From the NCBI RefSeq assembly GCF_030384885.1, contig NZ_CP128613.1: DNA of 64,000 bases, one strand, 5' to 3'. The DNA is from Escherichia coli (GTDB taxonomy: Bacteria; Pseudomonadota; Gammaproteobacteria; Enterobacterales; Enterobacteriaceae). A program made the position numbers and the translations under genes. Under the pieces are notes generated by a model. The model had not been told where the DNA came from. It worked only from the letters and a program-made list of their open reading frames with translations, and searched no databases. This document shows positions 4,147-9,498 of this stretch, in pieces (the first letter of the stretch is position 1; every line of letters starts with the position of its first letter).

Positions 4147-5475
4147 TTAACGGCCTTTAGCCAGATATTGCTTCATCTCTTCTTCCGGCACCATTCCACC
4201 TCCTGTCGCCCACACCAGATGAGTGGCATTACGCAGTTGTTCTGTGCTGAAACCTTGCATCTGTTGGTAAATTACTGATGCGCACACGCGCTGAGGCCCG
4301 GCCATACCCGCCAGTGCTGAAGGCTCAAGACGAATGTCTTCTTCCTGCGCCAGCCAGCCAAGCATGTCATACATGGTTTGATCGCTAAGGGTATAGAAGC
4401 CATCCAGCAGACGCTCCATTGCCCGCCCGACAAAGCCTGATGCGCGACCAACTGCAAGGCCATCCGCGGCGGTAAGGTTGTCGATACCAATATCCTGAAC
4501 AGAAATCTGATCGTGTAATCCAGTATGGACGCCTAACAGCATACAAGGGGAGTGCGTGGGTTCGGCAAAAAAGCAGTGAACATGATCGCCAAACGCCAGT
4601 TTAAGCCCGAATGCGACGCCACCAGGACCACCGCCAACGCCACACGGCAGATAGACAAACAGAGGGTTATCAGCATCGACAATACGACCTTGCTCGGCAA
4701 ATTGCGCTTTAAGACGCTGGCCTGCGACGGAATACCCAAGGAACAACGTGCGGGAATTCTCGTCATCAATAAAGAAACAGTTCGGGTCAGACTGCGCTGC
4801 TTTACGTCCTTCCTCGACGGCAACCCCATAATCTTGCTCATATTCCACGACCGTAACGCCATGGCTGCGCAGTTTCGCTTTTTTCCATGCCCGGGCATCA
4901 GCAGACATATGTACTGTCACCTTAAAGCCAATGCGGGCGCTCATAATACCGATTGATAACCCCAGATTTCCGGTTGAGCCCACAGCAATGCTGTATTGGC
5001 TAAAGAACTGCTTAAACTCCGGAGAAAGCAGTTTGCTGTAGTCATCTTCAAGCGTCAGCAACCCTGCTTCCAGAGCCAGTTTTTCTGCATGTGCCAGGAC
5101 TTCATAAATCCCGCCGCGTGCTTTTATGGAGCCGGAAATAGGCAAATGGCTATCTTTTTTCAGTAACAGTTGCCCGCTGATCGGTTGCTGATATTCCTTT
5201 TCCAGCCGTTTTTGCATAGCCGGAATGGCAACCAGTTCTGATTCAATAATCCCTCCAGAGGCAGCCGTTTCAGGAAATGCTTTTGCCAGATAGGGGGCAA
5301 AACGAGATAAGCGCGCATGGGCGTCCTGAACATCCTGTTCGGTCAGGCCAACATAAGGTAAACCTTCAGCCAATGAGGTCGTGCCAGGATTGAACCAGGT
5401 GGTTTCTTTAAGAGCAACCAGATCCTTTACCAACGGATACTGGGCGATGAGCGAGTTCATTTTAGCGTTTTCCAT
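4147..5475 (-). CDS. dsdA: D-serine ammonia-lyase (D-serine dehydratase), PLP-dependent
   Basis: 442-aa ORF recognised as DsdA. Confidence 0.95.
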
Positions 5476-5675
5476 AGTATGTCTCTTTGCGCTTCGATGA
5501 TAAATGACAGCAGGAATGTGCCCGCCAGAGCGACGACTGAAGCGATAAATGTCGCTGTCGTATAGTATTTATATGTTTCACTGAGCGTAGCGCCGCAAAA
5601 TTGTTTCATCAGCCAGAAAAACGAGTCCGTAACGATCGTGCAGCCAATCGCAATAATTTCCGGGCTGATGTCTGG
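5457..5675 (-). pseudogene. dsdX: 3' remnant of dsdX (GntP-family D-serine transporter), about 72 codons
   Basis: Minus-strand frame translates ..[45 protein letters not shown].., typical GntP-family C-terminus; the frame is closed by stops upstream of about 5675; exact 3' end and overlap with dsdA start uncertain. Confidence 0.55.
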
Positions 5676-5931
5676 TTACAGCCACAGCACAATGATCCAT
5701 ATTTATATTTTTTCTCCGGGTGGGTGATGCCAGTCGGCATGTTTTACCTACTTGTCTGCATGGTGACTCGTTGGCGAGAACAGAGGCGGAATTGGTTACA
5801 ATTGTCCGGGAATTCTTGTTATTTTTTACTGTATTGTCGTGTCGGGTGATAGGACGTTAAGAATATCGCTGGATCTCGCCAGTGACGTCTGTTTCTGCTA
5901 CAGTGCCCGTTTTACGGCAAACGGCTTGGGT

Positions 5932-6927
5932 ATGGCTTCATTAAAGGATGTCGCACGCCTGGCGGGAGTGTCGATGATGACTGTCTCCCGGGTGATGCAT
6001 AATGCAGAATCTGTGCGTCCTGCAACGCGTGACCGCGTATTGCAGGCAATCCAAACCCTGAATTATGTTCCTGATCTTTCCGCTCGTAAGATGCGCGCTC
6101 AGGGACGTAAGCCGTCGACTCTCGCCGTGCTGGCGCAGGATACTGCTACCACTCCTTTCTCTGTTGATATTCTGCTTGCCATTGAACAAACCGCCAGCGA
6201 GTTTGGCTGGAATAGTTTTTTAATCAATATTTTTTCTGAAGATGACGCTGCCCGCGCGGCACGTCAGCTGCTTGCCCTCCGTCCGGATGGCATTATCTAT
6301 ACTACAATGGGACTGAGGCATATCACGCTGCCTGAGTCTCTGCATGGTGAAAATATTGTATTGGCGAACTGTGTGGCGGATGACCCAGCGTTACCCAGTT
6401 ATATCCCTGATGATTACACTGCCCAATATGAAGCAACACAGCATTTGCTCGCGGCGGGCTATCGTCAACCGTTATGCTTCTGGCTACCGGAAGGTGCGTT
6501 GGCAACAGGGTATCGTCGGCAGGGATTTGAGCAGGCCTGGCGTGATGCTGGACGAGATCTGGCTGAGGTGAAACAATTTCACATGGCCATAGGTGATGAT
6601 CACTACACCGATCTCGCAAGTATACTCAATGCCCACTTCCAGTCTGTAAAACCAGATTTTGATGTTCTGATTTGTGGTAACGATCGCGCAGCCTTTGTTG
6701 CTTATCAGGTTCTTCTGGCGAAGGGGGTACGTATCCCGCAGGATGTCGCCGTAATGGGCTTTGATAATCTGGTTGGCGTCGGGCATCTGTTTTTACCGCC
6801 GCTGACCACAATTCAGCTTCCACATGACATTATCGGGCGGGAAGCTGCATTGCATATTATTGAAGGTCGTGAAGGGGGAAGGGTAACGCAGATCCCTTGC
6901 CCGCTGTTGATCCGTTGTTCCACCTGA
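5932..6927 (+). CDS. cscR: LacI-family repressor of sucrose genes, CscR
   Basis: 331 aa from MASLKDVARLAGVSMMTVSRV (HTH) with periplasmic-binding-fold body; the ORF-track start at 5839 is probably an upstream extension. Confidence 0.9.
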   Translation: MASLKDVARLAGVSMMTVSRVMHNAESVRPATRDRVLQAIQTLNYVPDLSARKMRAQGRKPSTLAVLAQDTATTPFSVDILLAIEQTASEFGWNSFLINIFSEDDAARAARQLLALRPDGIIYTTMGLRHITLPESLHGENIVLANCVADDPALPSYIPDDYTAQYEATQHLLAAGYRQPLCFWLPEGALATGYRRQGFEQAWRDAGRDLAEVKQFHMAIGDDHYTDLASILNAHFQSVKPDFDVLICGNDRAAFVAYQVLLAKGVRIPQDVAVMGFDNLVGVGHLFLPPLTTIQLPHDIIGREAALHIIEGREGGRVTQIPCPLLIRCST

Positions 6928-6934
6928 TATTATG

Positions 6935-8368
6935 TTACCCCAGTTGCCAGAGTGCTCCATGTTGCAGCACGCCCACTCCGTGGGCGGCATAGAGCGACAG
7001 TTCCCGTTCTTCTGGCTGCGGATAGATTCGGCTACTCATCACAGCTTCCCCGTCGTTAATAAATACTTCCACGGATGATGTATCGATAAATATCCTTAGG
7101 GCGAGCGTGTCACGCTGCGGGAGGGGAATACTACGGTAACCATCTAAATTCTCGTGTGGGTAATACCGCCACAAAACAAGTCGCTCAGATTGGTTATCAA
7201 TATACAGCCGCATTCCCGTGCCGAGCTGTAATCCGTAATGTTCGGCATCGCTGTTCTTCAGAGCCCACTGCAACTGAATCTCAACCGCTTGCGCGTTTTC
7301 CTGCAAAACATATTTGTTGCTGATTGTGTGGGGAGAGATTGATTGATGCTGCTGGCGTAACGACTCAGCTTCGTGTACCGGGCGTTGTAGGAGTTTGCCA
7401 TTGCTCTCAGATAGCTCGCGCGCCAGCGTCATGCAGCCTGCCCAGCCTTCACGTTTTGAGGGCATTGGCGATTCCCACATATCCATCCAGCCGATAACAA
7501 TACGCCGACCATCCTTCGCTAAAAAGCTTTGTGGTGCATAAAAGTCATGCCCATAATCAAGTTCAGTAAAATGCCCGGATTGTGCAAAAAGTCGTCCTGG
7601 CGACCATATTCCGGGTATTACACCACTTTGAAAGCGATTTCGATAATTGTATCCCTCGGCATTCATTCCCTGCGGGGAAAACATCAGATAATGTTGATCG
7701 CCAAGGCTGAAAAAGTCCGGACATTCCCACATATAGCTTTCACCCGCATCAGCGTGGGCCAGTACGCGATCGAAAGTCCATTCACGCAATGAACTACCGC
7801 GATAAAGCAGGATCTGTCCCGTGTTGCCTGGGTCTTTCGCCCCGACTACCATCCACCAGGTGTCGGCTTCACGCCACACTTTAGGATCGCGGAAGTGCAT
7901 GATTCCTTCTGGTGGAGTGAGGATCACACCTTGTTTCTCGAAATGAATACCATCCCGGCTGGTAGCCAGACATTGTACTTCACGAATTGCATCGTCATTA
8001 CCTGCACCATCGAGCCAGACGTGGCCGGTGTAGATAAGTGAGAGGACACCATTGTCATCAACAGCACTACCTGAAAAACACCCGTCTTTGTCATTCTCGT
8101 CTCCTGGCGCTAGCGCAATAGGCTCGTGCTGCCAGTGGATCATATCGTCGCTGGTGGCATGTCCCCAGTGCATTGGCCCCCAGTGTTCGCTCATCGGGTG
8201 ATGCTGATAAAACGCGTGATAACGATTGTTAAACCAGATCAGGCCGTTTGGATCGTTCATCCACCCGGCTGGAGGCGCGAGGTGAAAATGGGGATAAAAA
8301 GTATTCCCCCGGCGCTCGTGAAGTTTTGCTAGTGCGTTTTGCGCCGCATGCAATCGAGATTGCGTCAT
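6935..8368 (-). CDS. cscA: Sucrose-6-phosphate hydrolase / invertase (GH32), CscA
   Basis: GH32 motifs WMNDPNG, FRDP, EC present; start taken at MTQSRLHAAQ (477 aa). Confidence 0.92.
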   Translation of the reverse strand: MTQSRLHAAQNALAKLHERRGNTFYPHFHLAPPAGWMNDPNGLIWFNNRYHAFYQHHPMSEHWGPMHWGHATSDDMIHWQHEPIALAPGDENDKDGCFSGSAVDDNGVLSLIYTGHVWLDGAGNDDAIREVQCLATSRDGIHFEKQGVILTPPEGIMHFRDPKVWREADTWWMVVGAKDPGNTGQILLYRGSSLREWTFDRVLAHADAGESYMWECPDFFSLGDQHYLMFSPQGMNAEGYNYRNRFQSGVIPGIWSPGRLFAQSGHFTELDYGHDFYAPQSFLAKDGRRIVIGWMDMWESPMPSKREGWAGCMTLARELSESNGKLLQRPVHEAESLRQQHQSISPHTISNKYVLQENAQAVEIQLQWALKNSDAEHYGLQLGTGMRLYIDNQSERLVLWRYYPHENLDGYRSIPLPQRDTLALRIFIDTSSVEVFINDGEAVMSSRIYPQPEERELSLYAAHGVGVLQHGALWQLG

Positions 8369-8402
8369 TTTAATCATCCTGGTTAAGCAAATTTGGTGAA
8401 TT

Positions 8403-8414
8403 GTTAACGTTAAC
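8403..8414. promoter_or_regulatory. Palindrome GTTAACGTTAAC, copy 1 (candidate LacI-family/CscR operator)
   Basis: Perfect 12-bp palindrome with central CG in cscA-cscK divergent region. Confidence 0.4.
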
Positions 8415-8447
8415 TTTTATAAAAATAAAGCCCCTTATCTTTATAAA

Positions 8448-8463
8448 TGTGATTAATATCACA
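8448..8463. promoter_or_regulatory. CRP (cAMP receptor protein) binding site TGTGATTAATATCACA
   Basis: Perfect match to both CRP half-sites TGTGA-N6-TCACA. Confidence 0.55.
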
Positions 8464-8466
8464 AAT

Positions 8467-8478
8467 GTTAACGTTAAC
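8467..8478. promoter_or_regulatory. Palindrome GTTAACGTTAAC, copy 2 (candidate CscR operator)
   Basis: Second identical 12-bp palindrome 64 bp from the first. Confidence 0.4.
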
Positions 8479-8583
8479 TATGACGTTTTGTGATCGAATG
8501 TGCATGTTTTAGTAAATCCATGACGATTTTGCGAAAAAGAGGTTTATCACTATGCGTAAGTCAGATGAATTTGAGGGAAAAAA

Positions 8584-9498
8584 ATGTCAGCCAAAGTATG
8601 GGTTTTAGGGGATGCGGTTGTCGATCTCTTGCCTGAATCAGACGGGCGCCTACTGCCTTGTCCTGGCGGCGCGCCAGCTAACGTTGCGGTGGGAATCGCC
8701 AGATTAGGCGGAATAAGTGGGTTTATAGGCCGGGTGGGTGATGATCCTTTTGGCGCGTTAATGCAAAGAACGCTGCTAACGGAGGGAGTCGATATCACGT
8801 ATCTGAAGCAGGATGAATGGCACCGAACATCCACGGTGCTTGTCGATCTGAACGATCAGGGGGAACGTTCATTTACGTTTATGGTCCGCCCTAGTGCCGA
8901 TCTTTTTTTAGAGACGACTGACTTGCCCTTCTGGCGACATGGCGAATGGTTACATCTCTGTTCTATTGCGTTGTCTGCTGAACCTTCGCGTACCAGCGCA
9001 TTTACTGCGATGACGGCGATCCGGCATGCCGGAGGTTTTGTCAGCTTCGATCCCAATATTCGTGAAGATCTGTGGCAAGACGAGCATTTGCTCCGCTTGT
9101 GTTTGCGACAGGCGCTACAACTGGCGGATGTCGTCAAGCTCTCGGAAGAAGAATGGCGACTTATCAGCGGAAAAACACAGAACGATCGGGATATATGTGC
9201 TCTGGCAAAAGAGTATGAGATCGCCATGCTGTTGGTGACTAAAGGTGCAGAAGGGGTGGTGGTCTGTTATCGAGGACAAGTTCACCATTTTGCTGGAATG
9301 TCTGTGAATTGTGTCGATAGCACGGGGGCGGGAGATGCGTTCGTTGCCGGGTTACTCACAGGTCTTTCCTCTACGGGATTAGAGACCGATGAGAGAGAAA
9401 TGCGACGAATTATCGATCTCGCTCAACGTTGCGGAGCGCTTGCAGTAACGGCGAAAGGGGCAATGACAGCGCTGCCATGTCGACAAGATCTGGAATAG
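8584..9498 (+). CDS. cscK: Fructokinase (PfkB/ribokinase family), CscK
   Basis: 304-aa sugar-kinase ORF with GAGD motif region. Confidence 0.9.
   Translation: MSAKVWVLGDAVVDLLPESDGRLLPCPGGAPANVAVGIARLGGISGFIGRVGDDPFGALMQRTLLTEGVDITYLKQDEWHRTSTVLVDLNDQGERSFTFMVRPSADLFLETTDLPFWRHGEWLHLCSIALSAEPSRTSAFTAMTAIRHAGGFVSFDPNIREDLWQDEHLLRLCLRQALQLADVVKLSEEEWRLISGKTQNDRDICALAKEYEIAMLLVTKGAEGVVVCYRGQVHHFAGMSVNCVDSTGAGDAFVAGLLTGLSSTGLETDEREMRRIIDLAQRCGALAVTAKGAMTALPCRQDLE

Follow-up and report, generated by a model that had tools for sequence, protein, structure and literature searches.

The closest described counterparts of the locus analysed here are the csc genes of Escherichia coli EC3132 and W, which occupy the same position next to dsdA and argW and follow the same order: cscR, cscA and a divergent cscK-cscB pair. 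Passages of Stephens et al. 2024 (PMC11251922) recount how Jahreis et al. 2002 detected a 12-bp inverted repeat that is present twice in the cscA-cscK interval; both copies are regarded as putative CscR operators, and one is the site of a derepressing, up-expression mutation. The same passages place these operators on either side of the cscA -35 and -10 elements, the downstream one over the transcription start, with a putative Crp-cAMP site adjoining the -35, and report that both the operators and the Crp site are conserved in Citrobacter and Kluyvera. Portions of Steen et al. 2014 (PMC3938415) present CscR as the presumed repressor of the two divergent operons, acting at operators in this region, record that E. 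coli W again acquired a cscKB operator mutation, with which it can grow on low sucrose, and attribute to Sabri et al. 2013 two cAMP-CrpA sites in the bidirectional csc promoter. According to the relevant portions of both papers, csc is cAMP-responsive, and disruption of cyaA (cyaA::Tn5) abolishes the use of sucrose (PMC3938415, PMC11251922).

Here, we have analysed the csc control region within a window of E. coli DNA, by which we mean the whole stretch of 64 kb. A sequence-only reading of this DNA had proposed CscR operators around a CRP site, and csc expression that is both repressor-controlled and catabolite-repressed. The second proposal matches the operator mutation and the dependence on CscR and cAMP reported in the passages cited above (PMC11251922, PMC3938415), and comparison with the published operators bears out the first, in that two 12-bp inverted repeats between cscA and cscK are described there (PMC11251922). 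The window resembles the published csc of EC3132 and W in these repeats and in the Crp site; cAMP dependence and the operator mutation are those reported for the published csc. The interpretation is essentially the published model, rediscovered from sequence alone and already known. It therefore carries little weight as a discovery, since the first description of the csc operators and CRP site dates from 2002 and further studies returned to them in 2013 and 2024. The csc control region is real, strongly conserved and ordinary. The details that are new are modest: a perfect CRP site (CRP1) that proves to be a rare allele, a second CRP-like site beside one operator (O2), and a rigid module in which two CRP sites take part.

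The csc locus and its putative operators

The four csc genes of the window and the neighbouring tRNA gene are arranged as follows, with reference to the annotation of an identical region in NZ_CP027579.1 (cscA, LacI-family regulator, kinase, MFS transporter):

5932..6927, plus strand: cscR, LacI-family repressor of 331 aa, convergent with cscA (as annotated in RefSeq for the identical region)
6935..8368, minus strand: cscA, sucrose hydrolase (GH32 invertase; NCBIfam TIGR01322, 481 bits), whose annotated start maps to 8368
8584..9498, plus strand: cscK, fructokinase (NCBIfam NF006957, 504 bits; annotated in NZ_CP027579.1)
9570..10817, plus strand: cscB, sucrose:H+ symporter, an oligosaccharide MFS permease (NCBIfam TIGR00882, 590 bits)
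11253-11327: argW, tRNA-Arg(CCT)

Mapping to this annotation defines a cscA/cscK intergenic region of 215 bp (8369-8583). An ATG at 8377 opens the longest cscA reading frame and precedes the RefSeq-annotated ATG (8368) by three codons; AGGA at 8382..8379 fits the annotated start better. CscR itself combines a LacI-type helix-turn-helix (Pfam PF00356) with a Peripla_BP_1 sugar-binding core.

To the left of the csc genes lie dsdA and an emrY-like gene, and the csc island is bounded by an intact dsdA, accompanied by neither dsdC nor dsdX, and by argW (4147-5475, 5476-5931, 11253-11327, 11403-12335). An ORF of 310 aa belonging to the FNT transporter family follows the island and argW, and is presumably yfdC-like by its position. 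The csc junction varies between strains, since strain 2013C-4282, otherwise identical, has prophage genes (torI) after cscB instead. Overall, the csc region is carried by 2,663 of 5,426 complete E. coli genomes, about half, and is chromosomal in every case.

Four putative protein-binding sites can be recognised in the intergenic region, none of which is assigned a strand:

8403..8414: O1, cscA-proximal putative CscR operator, exact palindrome GTTAACGTTAAC
8448..8463: CRP1, putative cAMP-CRP site, TGTGATTAATATCACA, centre 8455.5
8467..8478: O2, cscK-proximal putative CscR operator, exact palindrome GTTAACGTTAAC
8489..8504: CRP2, second and weaker CRP-like site, TGTGATCGAATGTGCA, centre 8496.5

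The two 12-bp palindromes are perfect, as had been claimed from the sequence: GTTAACGTTAAC reads the same on both strands around a central CG, and its only exact copies in the 64 kb of the window are O1 and O2. When up to two mismatches are allowed, the window holds 8 matches against 2.28 +/- 1.52 in shuffled sequence, a number that none of 100 shuffles reached. O1 and O2 lie 35 and 106 bp from their respective start codons, in the intergenic region with cscR adjacent, and their sequence is invariant in all sampled E. coli alleles. They show the features of LacI/GalR operators, namely an even-length palindrome, a central CG, a position in a promoter region, an adjacent LacI-family gene and co-occurrence with orthologues of the regulator. 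A central CG with even length is found in 1173 of 1303 LacI-family motifs (PMC4052901); the conserved core of the csc palindrome, at 12-14 bp, is below the 16-22 bp typical of such motifs (PMC4052901). The proposal that the palindromes bracket a CRP site stands in so far as CRP1 lies between them. The arrangement is nonetheless asymmetric, with a gap of 3 bp to O2 versus 33 bp to O1.

A one-mismatch copy of the palindrome, GTTAACGATAAC, occurs at 62341-62352. We rejected it as an additional CscR target, as it sits inside a long ORF and an estimated ~0.15 such copies are expected by chance. Upstream of cscR in the window there is no palindrome at up to two mismatches, and autoregulation of cscR in the window was rejected on that ground.

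Conservation of the putative operators across cscR loci

With CscR of the window as query, we fetched 80 loci from one-genome-per-species contigs, 74 of which encode full-length CscR relatives at 48-96% identity. These come from about 20 genera: Escherichia, Citrobacter, Pluralibacter, Tatumella, Pectobacterium, Samsonia, Rosenbergiella, Rahnella, Klebsiella, Raoultella, Enterobacter, Lelliottia, Kosakonia, Serratia, Erwinia, Yersinia, Aeromonas, Gilliamella/Orbaceae, Proteus and Providencia. The 1.18 Mb of cscR-type loci contain 75 exact palindromes where 0.09 are expected, an enrichment of ~800-fold, and 155 at no more than one mismatch against an expected 3.1. At least one copy is present in 73 of the 74 loci, and 132 of the 155 sites are paired. 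The pairs are always found in the control region beside sucrose genes, also where gene order has been rearranged. One example is the cassette of Enterobacter, Klebsiella and Raoultella, which is kept although cscR diverges there from a cscB-like/cscA operon; in Enterobacter- and Klebsiella-type loci, cscR directly adjoins O2 and CRP2.

Spacing is conserved together with sequence. Measured start to start, O1 and O2 are 64 bp apart in 37 of 58 loci and 62-63 bp apart in 8, the exceptions being Gilliamella (57 bp) and Proteus (68-69 bp). An alignment without gaps of 24 non-redundant loci gave a mean information content, out of 2 bits, of 1.85 for O1, 1.98 for O2, 1.45 for CRP1 and 1.16 for CRP2, with 0.3-0.6 in the flanks. 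We would describe this as a textbook phylogenetic footprint, in which the link between the palindrome and CscR orthologues is about as firm as a computational analysis allows. The assignment of the palindromes as putative CscR operators, which the sequence-only reading had made, is supported by this footprint and by the published model.

Some lineages depart from the common pattern. The Gilliamella/Orbaceae loci (L032, L036, L039-L041, L044, L046, L068 and L075) carry, besides the cscA/cscK sites, an extra near-palindrome pair, TTTAACGTTAAC and GTTAATGTTAAC, 14-20 bp apart between cscB and cscR at about 7707-7850. This extra pair points to a permease under control of its own and to a cscR that regulates itself in these organisms. 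In Proteus (L022-L031 and L073; about 10580-10700), the operators are one-mismatch variants, GTTAACGATAAC and GTTAACGTTATC, 68-69 bp apart. A TTGACT -35-like element reads toward cscK and a CRP-like site is absent between the operators, so that the cassette may have been rebuilt without CRP in Proteus. In one member of this genus, Proteus myxofaciens (L073), an exact GTTAACGTTAAC is located at 9027, away from promoters, within the short interval where cscR and cscA converge.

Two CRP-like sites and a rare CRP1 allele

CRP1 is, as had been noted from the sequence, a perfect match to the CRP consensus. TGTGATTAATATCACA agrees with TGTGA-N6-TCACA at 10/10 half-site bases and is the only exact instance in the 64-kb window. 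At up to one mismatch, the motif class gives 2 matches in the window against 2.2 expected and is not enriched, so the significance of CRP1 rests on its position and conservation rather than on a count.

This perfect site is uncommon within the species. Most E. coli have TGCGATGAATATCACA at CRP1 instead, an allele that matches the consensus at 9/10 bases, and the six mainstream alleles sampled (EDL933, 536, ECONIH6, RM10809-3, EBJ003 and MB53) all read TGCGAT(G/T)AA(T/C)ATCACA. A 55-mer of the window spanning the site (8428-8482) occurs exactly in 37 of 2,626 E. coli genomes, whereas the EDL933 55-mer occurs exactly in 2,162 of 2,655, with a further 456 within 1-2 bases. The consensus TGTGA is carried by ~1.4% of csc-positive E. 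coli and TGCGA by the rest. TGTGA is also found at CRP1 in a divergent E. coli (L005), in Escherichia sp. MOD1-EC7003 (L006) and in Citrobacter amalonaticus. Because of this distribution it is probably the older state, and the common TGCGA allele is probably a weakened CRP1 site.

The rare haplotype is not confined to CRP1. It is distinguished in the window at 8450 and 8454, and also at 8431, 8438-8439, 8442, 8500 and 8573; the change at 8500 falls inside CRP2, and that at 8573 gives the ribosome-binding site ahead of the cscK start as GAGG, compared with AAGG in the published csc. Divergent Escherichia lineages share the states of the window haplotype, an indication that the allele is ancestral or recombined.

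CRP2 was not mentioned in the sequence-only reading. In the window its left half is perfect and its right half poor (3 mismatches), amounting to 7/10 half-site bases. Many other genera match the consensus here at 8-10/10 bases, and one Providencia locus has the perfect TGTGAGGGGTGTCACA. A CRP-like site 10 bp past O2 is found at the same offset in 43 of 58 loci; its left half, TGnGA, is near-invariant in the 24 non-redundant loci, and GTTTTGTGATC is invariant among the loci with E. coli gene order. CRP2 is consistent with the two cAMP-CrpA sites that a portion of PMC3938415 attributes to Sabri et al. 2013. The existence of a second conserved CRP-like site weakens the earlier proposal that a single CRP site serves both promoters: the conserved CRP1 that it invoked is present, but the proposal is probably incomplete given the conserved CRP2 at 8489-8504.

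The two CRP-like sites and O2 form a unit of fixed dimensions. CRP1 and O2 are separated by 3 bp in 44 of 58 loci and by 4 bp in another 4, and the centres of CRP1 and CRP2 lie 41 bp apart with O2 wedged between them. Across genera, changes in length are confined to the stretch from O1 to CRP1, while the spacing of CRP1, O2 and CRP2 is rigid. The Proteus and Providencia loci have no CRP-like site between the operators.

Proposed mechanism, alternatives and related systems

Taken together, our findings make it highly probable that 8369-8583 is the bidirectional csc control region, at which CscR acts on O1 and O2 and cAMP-CRP acts on CRP1 and, probably more weakly, on CRP2. From the arrangement of these sites we infer the promoter positions, the class I and class II assignments and the repression of cscKB from O2. 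Two -10 elements are proposed from the sequence:

8422..8427, minus strand: candidate PcscA -10, TATTTT (alternative TATAAA, 8421..8416)
8545..8550, plus strand: candidate PcscKB -10, TATCAC, inside the conserved block GGTTTATCACT (8541-8551)

A generic sigma-70 and terminator scan returned no promoter in the cscA/cscK intergenic region. This is expected for weak, activator-dependent promoters, and the positions given above are predictions. Comparative evidence bears on both candidates. CTTTATYTTT, the region of the PcscA -10 candidate, is conserved in loci with E. coli gene order; the centre of CRP1 is 41.5 bp upstream of G8414, the first O1 base on the cscA strand, and TATTTT stands at the matching -10 distance. 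On the cscK side, Escherichia, Citrobacter and Pluralibacter share the conserved GGTTTATCACT block (8541-8551) amid diverging sequence, and GGTTTATCA(C/A)T at 8541-8551 is the only conserved element in the interval from CRP2 to the cscK start. A cscKB promoter overlapping O2, or one of class II served by CRP1 with a start near 8497, was considered and not adopted, GTTTTG being no acceptable -10.

We propose that CscR dimers occupy the identical palindromes O1 and O2. The leftward cscA promoter would be class II-like, with CRP1 centred at about -41.5, and O1 would cover the cscA start region as a roadblock with either -10 candidate. On the cscA strand, O2 would then lie at about -58.5, abutting CRP1 upstream, and CRP2 at about -82.5. 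The placement of O1 over the start and of CRP1 by the -35 agrees with the verbal description in the passages of PMC11251922. For the rightward cscKB promoter, taking TATCAC as the -10 would put the start near 8558, with activation by CRP2 at about -61.5 (class I) and by CRP1 at about -102.5. CscR at O2, between the two CRP sites, would prevent this activation; since O2 would be at -85.5 from the cscKB start, too far to block polymerase directly, it would act on CRP through exclusion or contact. An inducer, either sucrose or a product of sucrose, would free CscR from DNA, and glucose, by lowering cAMP, would remove activation.

It is possible, if on balance unlikely, that CscR at O2 works in the manner of CytR, that is, mainly through CRP by steric exclusion or cooperative contact and not by blocking RNA polymerase. 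The gaps that separate O2 from CRP1 (3 bp) and from CRP2 (10 bp) are constant across genera, and the 41 bp between the CRP centres leave room for one LacI-type dimer only. In addition, any plausible core promoter of cscKB lies far downstream of O2, and the best NCBIfam match of CscR is CytR, albeit at 138 bits against a cut-off of 436. This argument is one of geometry, and the position of the cscKB promoter on which it draws is itself a prediction. Moreover, CRP sites in CytR-type promoters are about 52-53 bp apart, unlike the 41 bp of csc, and Proteus loci retain both operators without CRP-like sites.

It is tempting to speculate further, and here we are rather doubtful, that the rigid unit of CRP1, 3 bp, O2, 10 bp and CRP2 is a portable cassette, in which a dimeric LacI-family repressor displaces or contacts two CRP dimers 41 bp apart and natural variation in CRP1 tunes growth on sucrose. 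Such a compact, CytR-like anti-activation design would have been maintained in ~20 genera despite rearrangement of the flanking genes.

A loop of the lac type is improbable. Here, a CscR tetramer would bridge O1 and O2 (64 bp, ~6 helical turns), trapping the single CRP site and PcscA, and that one site would activate both divergent promoters, a scheme close to the picture drawn by the sequence-only reading. The identity of the operators, the position of CRP1 between them and the spacing of 62-64 bp in 45 of 58 loci would suit such a loop. However, CscR, at 331 aa, aligns to residues 5-313 of the 360 in LacI and ends at the core domain, and its lack of the C-terminal tetramerisation helix argues against lac-type looping. 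PDB 6NDI (57% identity to CscR, E = 5e-111) is a crystal structure of a Klebsiella/Raoultella-type homologue that is 89% identical to the regulators of L047 and L048. A loop is further opposed by the spacings in Gilliamella (57 bp) and Proteus (68-69 bp), which correspond to different helical phases, and by the second conserved CRP-like site on the cscK side. Indels fall solely between O1 and CRP1 while CRP1, O2 and CRP2 remain rigid, which points to local contacts rather than to loop length.

The central AACGTT resembles other LacI-family cores and our targeted literature searches found no direct CscR-DNA binding study, EMSA or footprint of E. coli CscR, but it is very improbable that the palindromes are not CscR sites at all, being instead chance tandem HpaI-like hexamers (GTTAAC x2) or targets of Cra/ScrR-type LacI-family proteins, given a motif ~800-fold enriched alongside cscR orthologues that follows cscR through rearrangements in 73 of 74 loci, and given that csc is derepressed by operator mutations and by loss of cscR according to portions of PMC11251922 and PMC3938415. 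The control region is of practical value. Production strains are engineered with the csc genes to utilise sucrose, and growth of wild csc strains on low sucrose is slow. The common allele has a degraded CRP1 half-site, whereas the rare natural haplotype combines a consensus CRP1 with a stronger cscK ribosome-binding site. This haplotype is an inexpensive, testable lead for strain improvement and for explaining strain differences in sucrose phenotype, and promoters with two inputs might be built with the rigid CRP-operator-CRP module as a compact part.

Among other systems, the scrY promoter, controlled by ScrR (pUR400 and Klebsiella), is like csc in having a LacI-family sucrose repressor, a CRP site upstream and two short inverted repeats that flank the -35 and -10, the downstream one covering the transcription start, as passages of PMC11251922 describe. 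ScrR and CscR nevertheless belong to separate LacI-family orthologous groups, as separate examples of sucrose regulators (PMC4052901). The same passages of PMC11251922 give the scr repeats as 14 bp and different in sequence from the 12-bp csc repeats, and scr as PTS-based and unidirectional with a poorly conserved CRP site, in contrast to the conserved CRP1 of csc.

The lac O3/CRP/O1 arrangement is similar in that a CRP site lies between LacI-family operators and the downstream operator overlaps the start. It differs in that the LacI tetramer loops O1 to O3 over 92 bp while CscR has no tetramerisation tail. The csc operators are identical and 64 bp apart, and CRP would be class II-like in csc as opposed to class I in lac. 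To CytR-regulated promoters, the CRP-operator-CRP sandwich of csc is loosely similar.

In gal, the operator OE is at -60.5, CRP is centred at -41.5, a second operator lies inside a gene at +53.5, and HU is required for looping. The likeness to csc lies in a GalR-type dimer directly upstream of CRP at -41.5, for which O2 at about -58.5 would be the csc equivalent, and in a second operator downstream of the start. In csc, this second operator, O1, would occupy +1 to +12 in a bidirectional region, whereas that of gal is intragenic.

A Cra protein can be set aside as the binder of the csc palindromes, its half-site consensus being TGAAAC and GTTAAC differing from it at 3/6 positions. The region in the window is thus no mere relative of the published csc control region but that region itself, in the form of a rare haplotype (37/2,626 genomes) with TGTGA in place of the common TGCGA.
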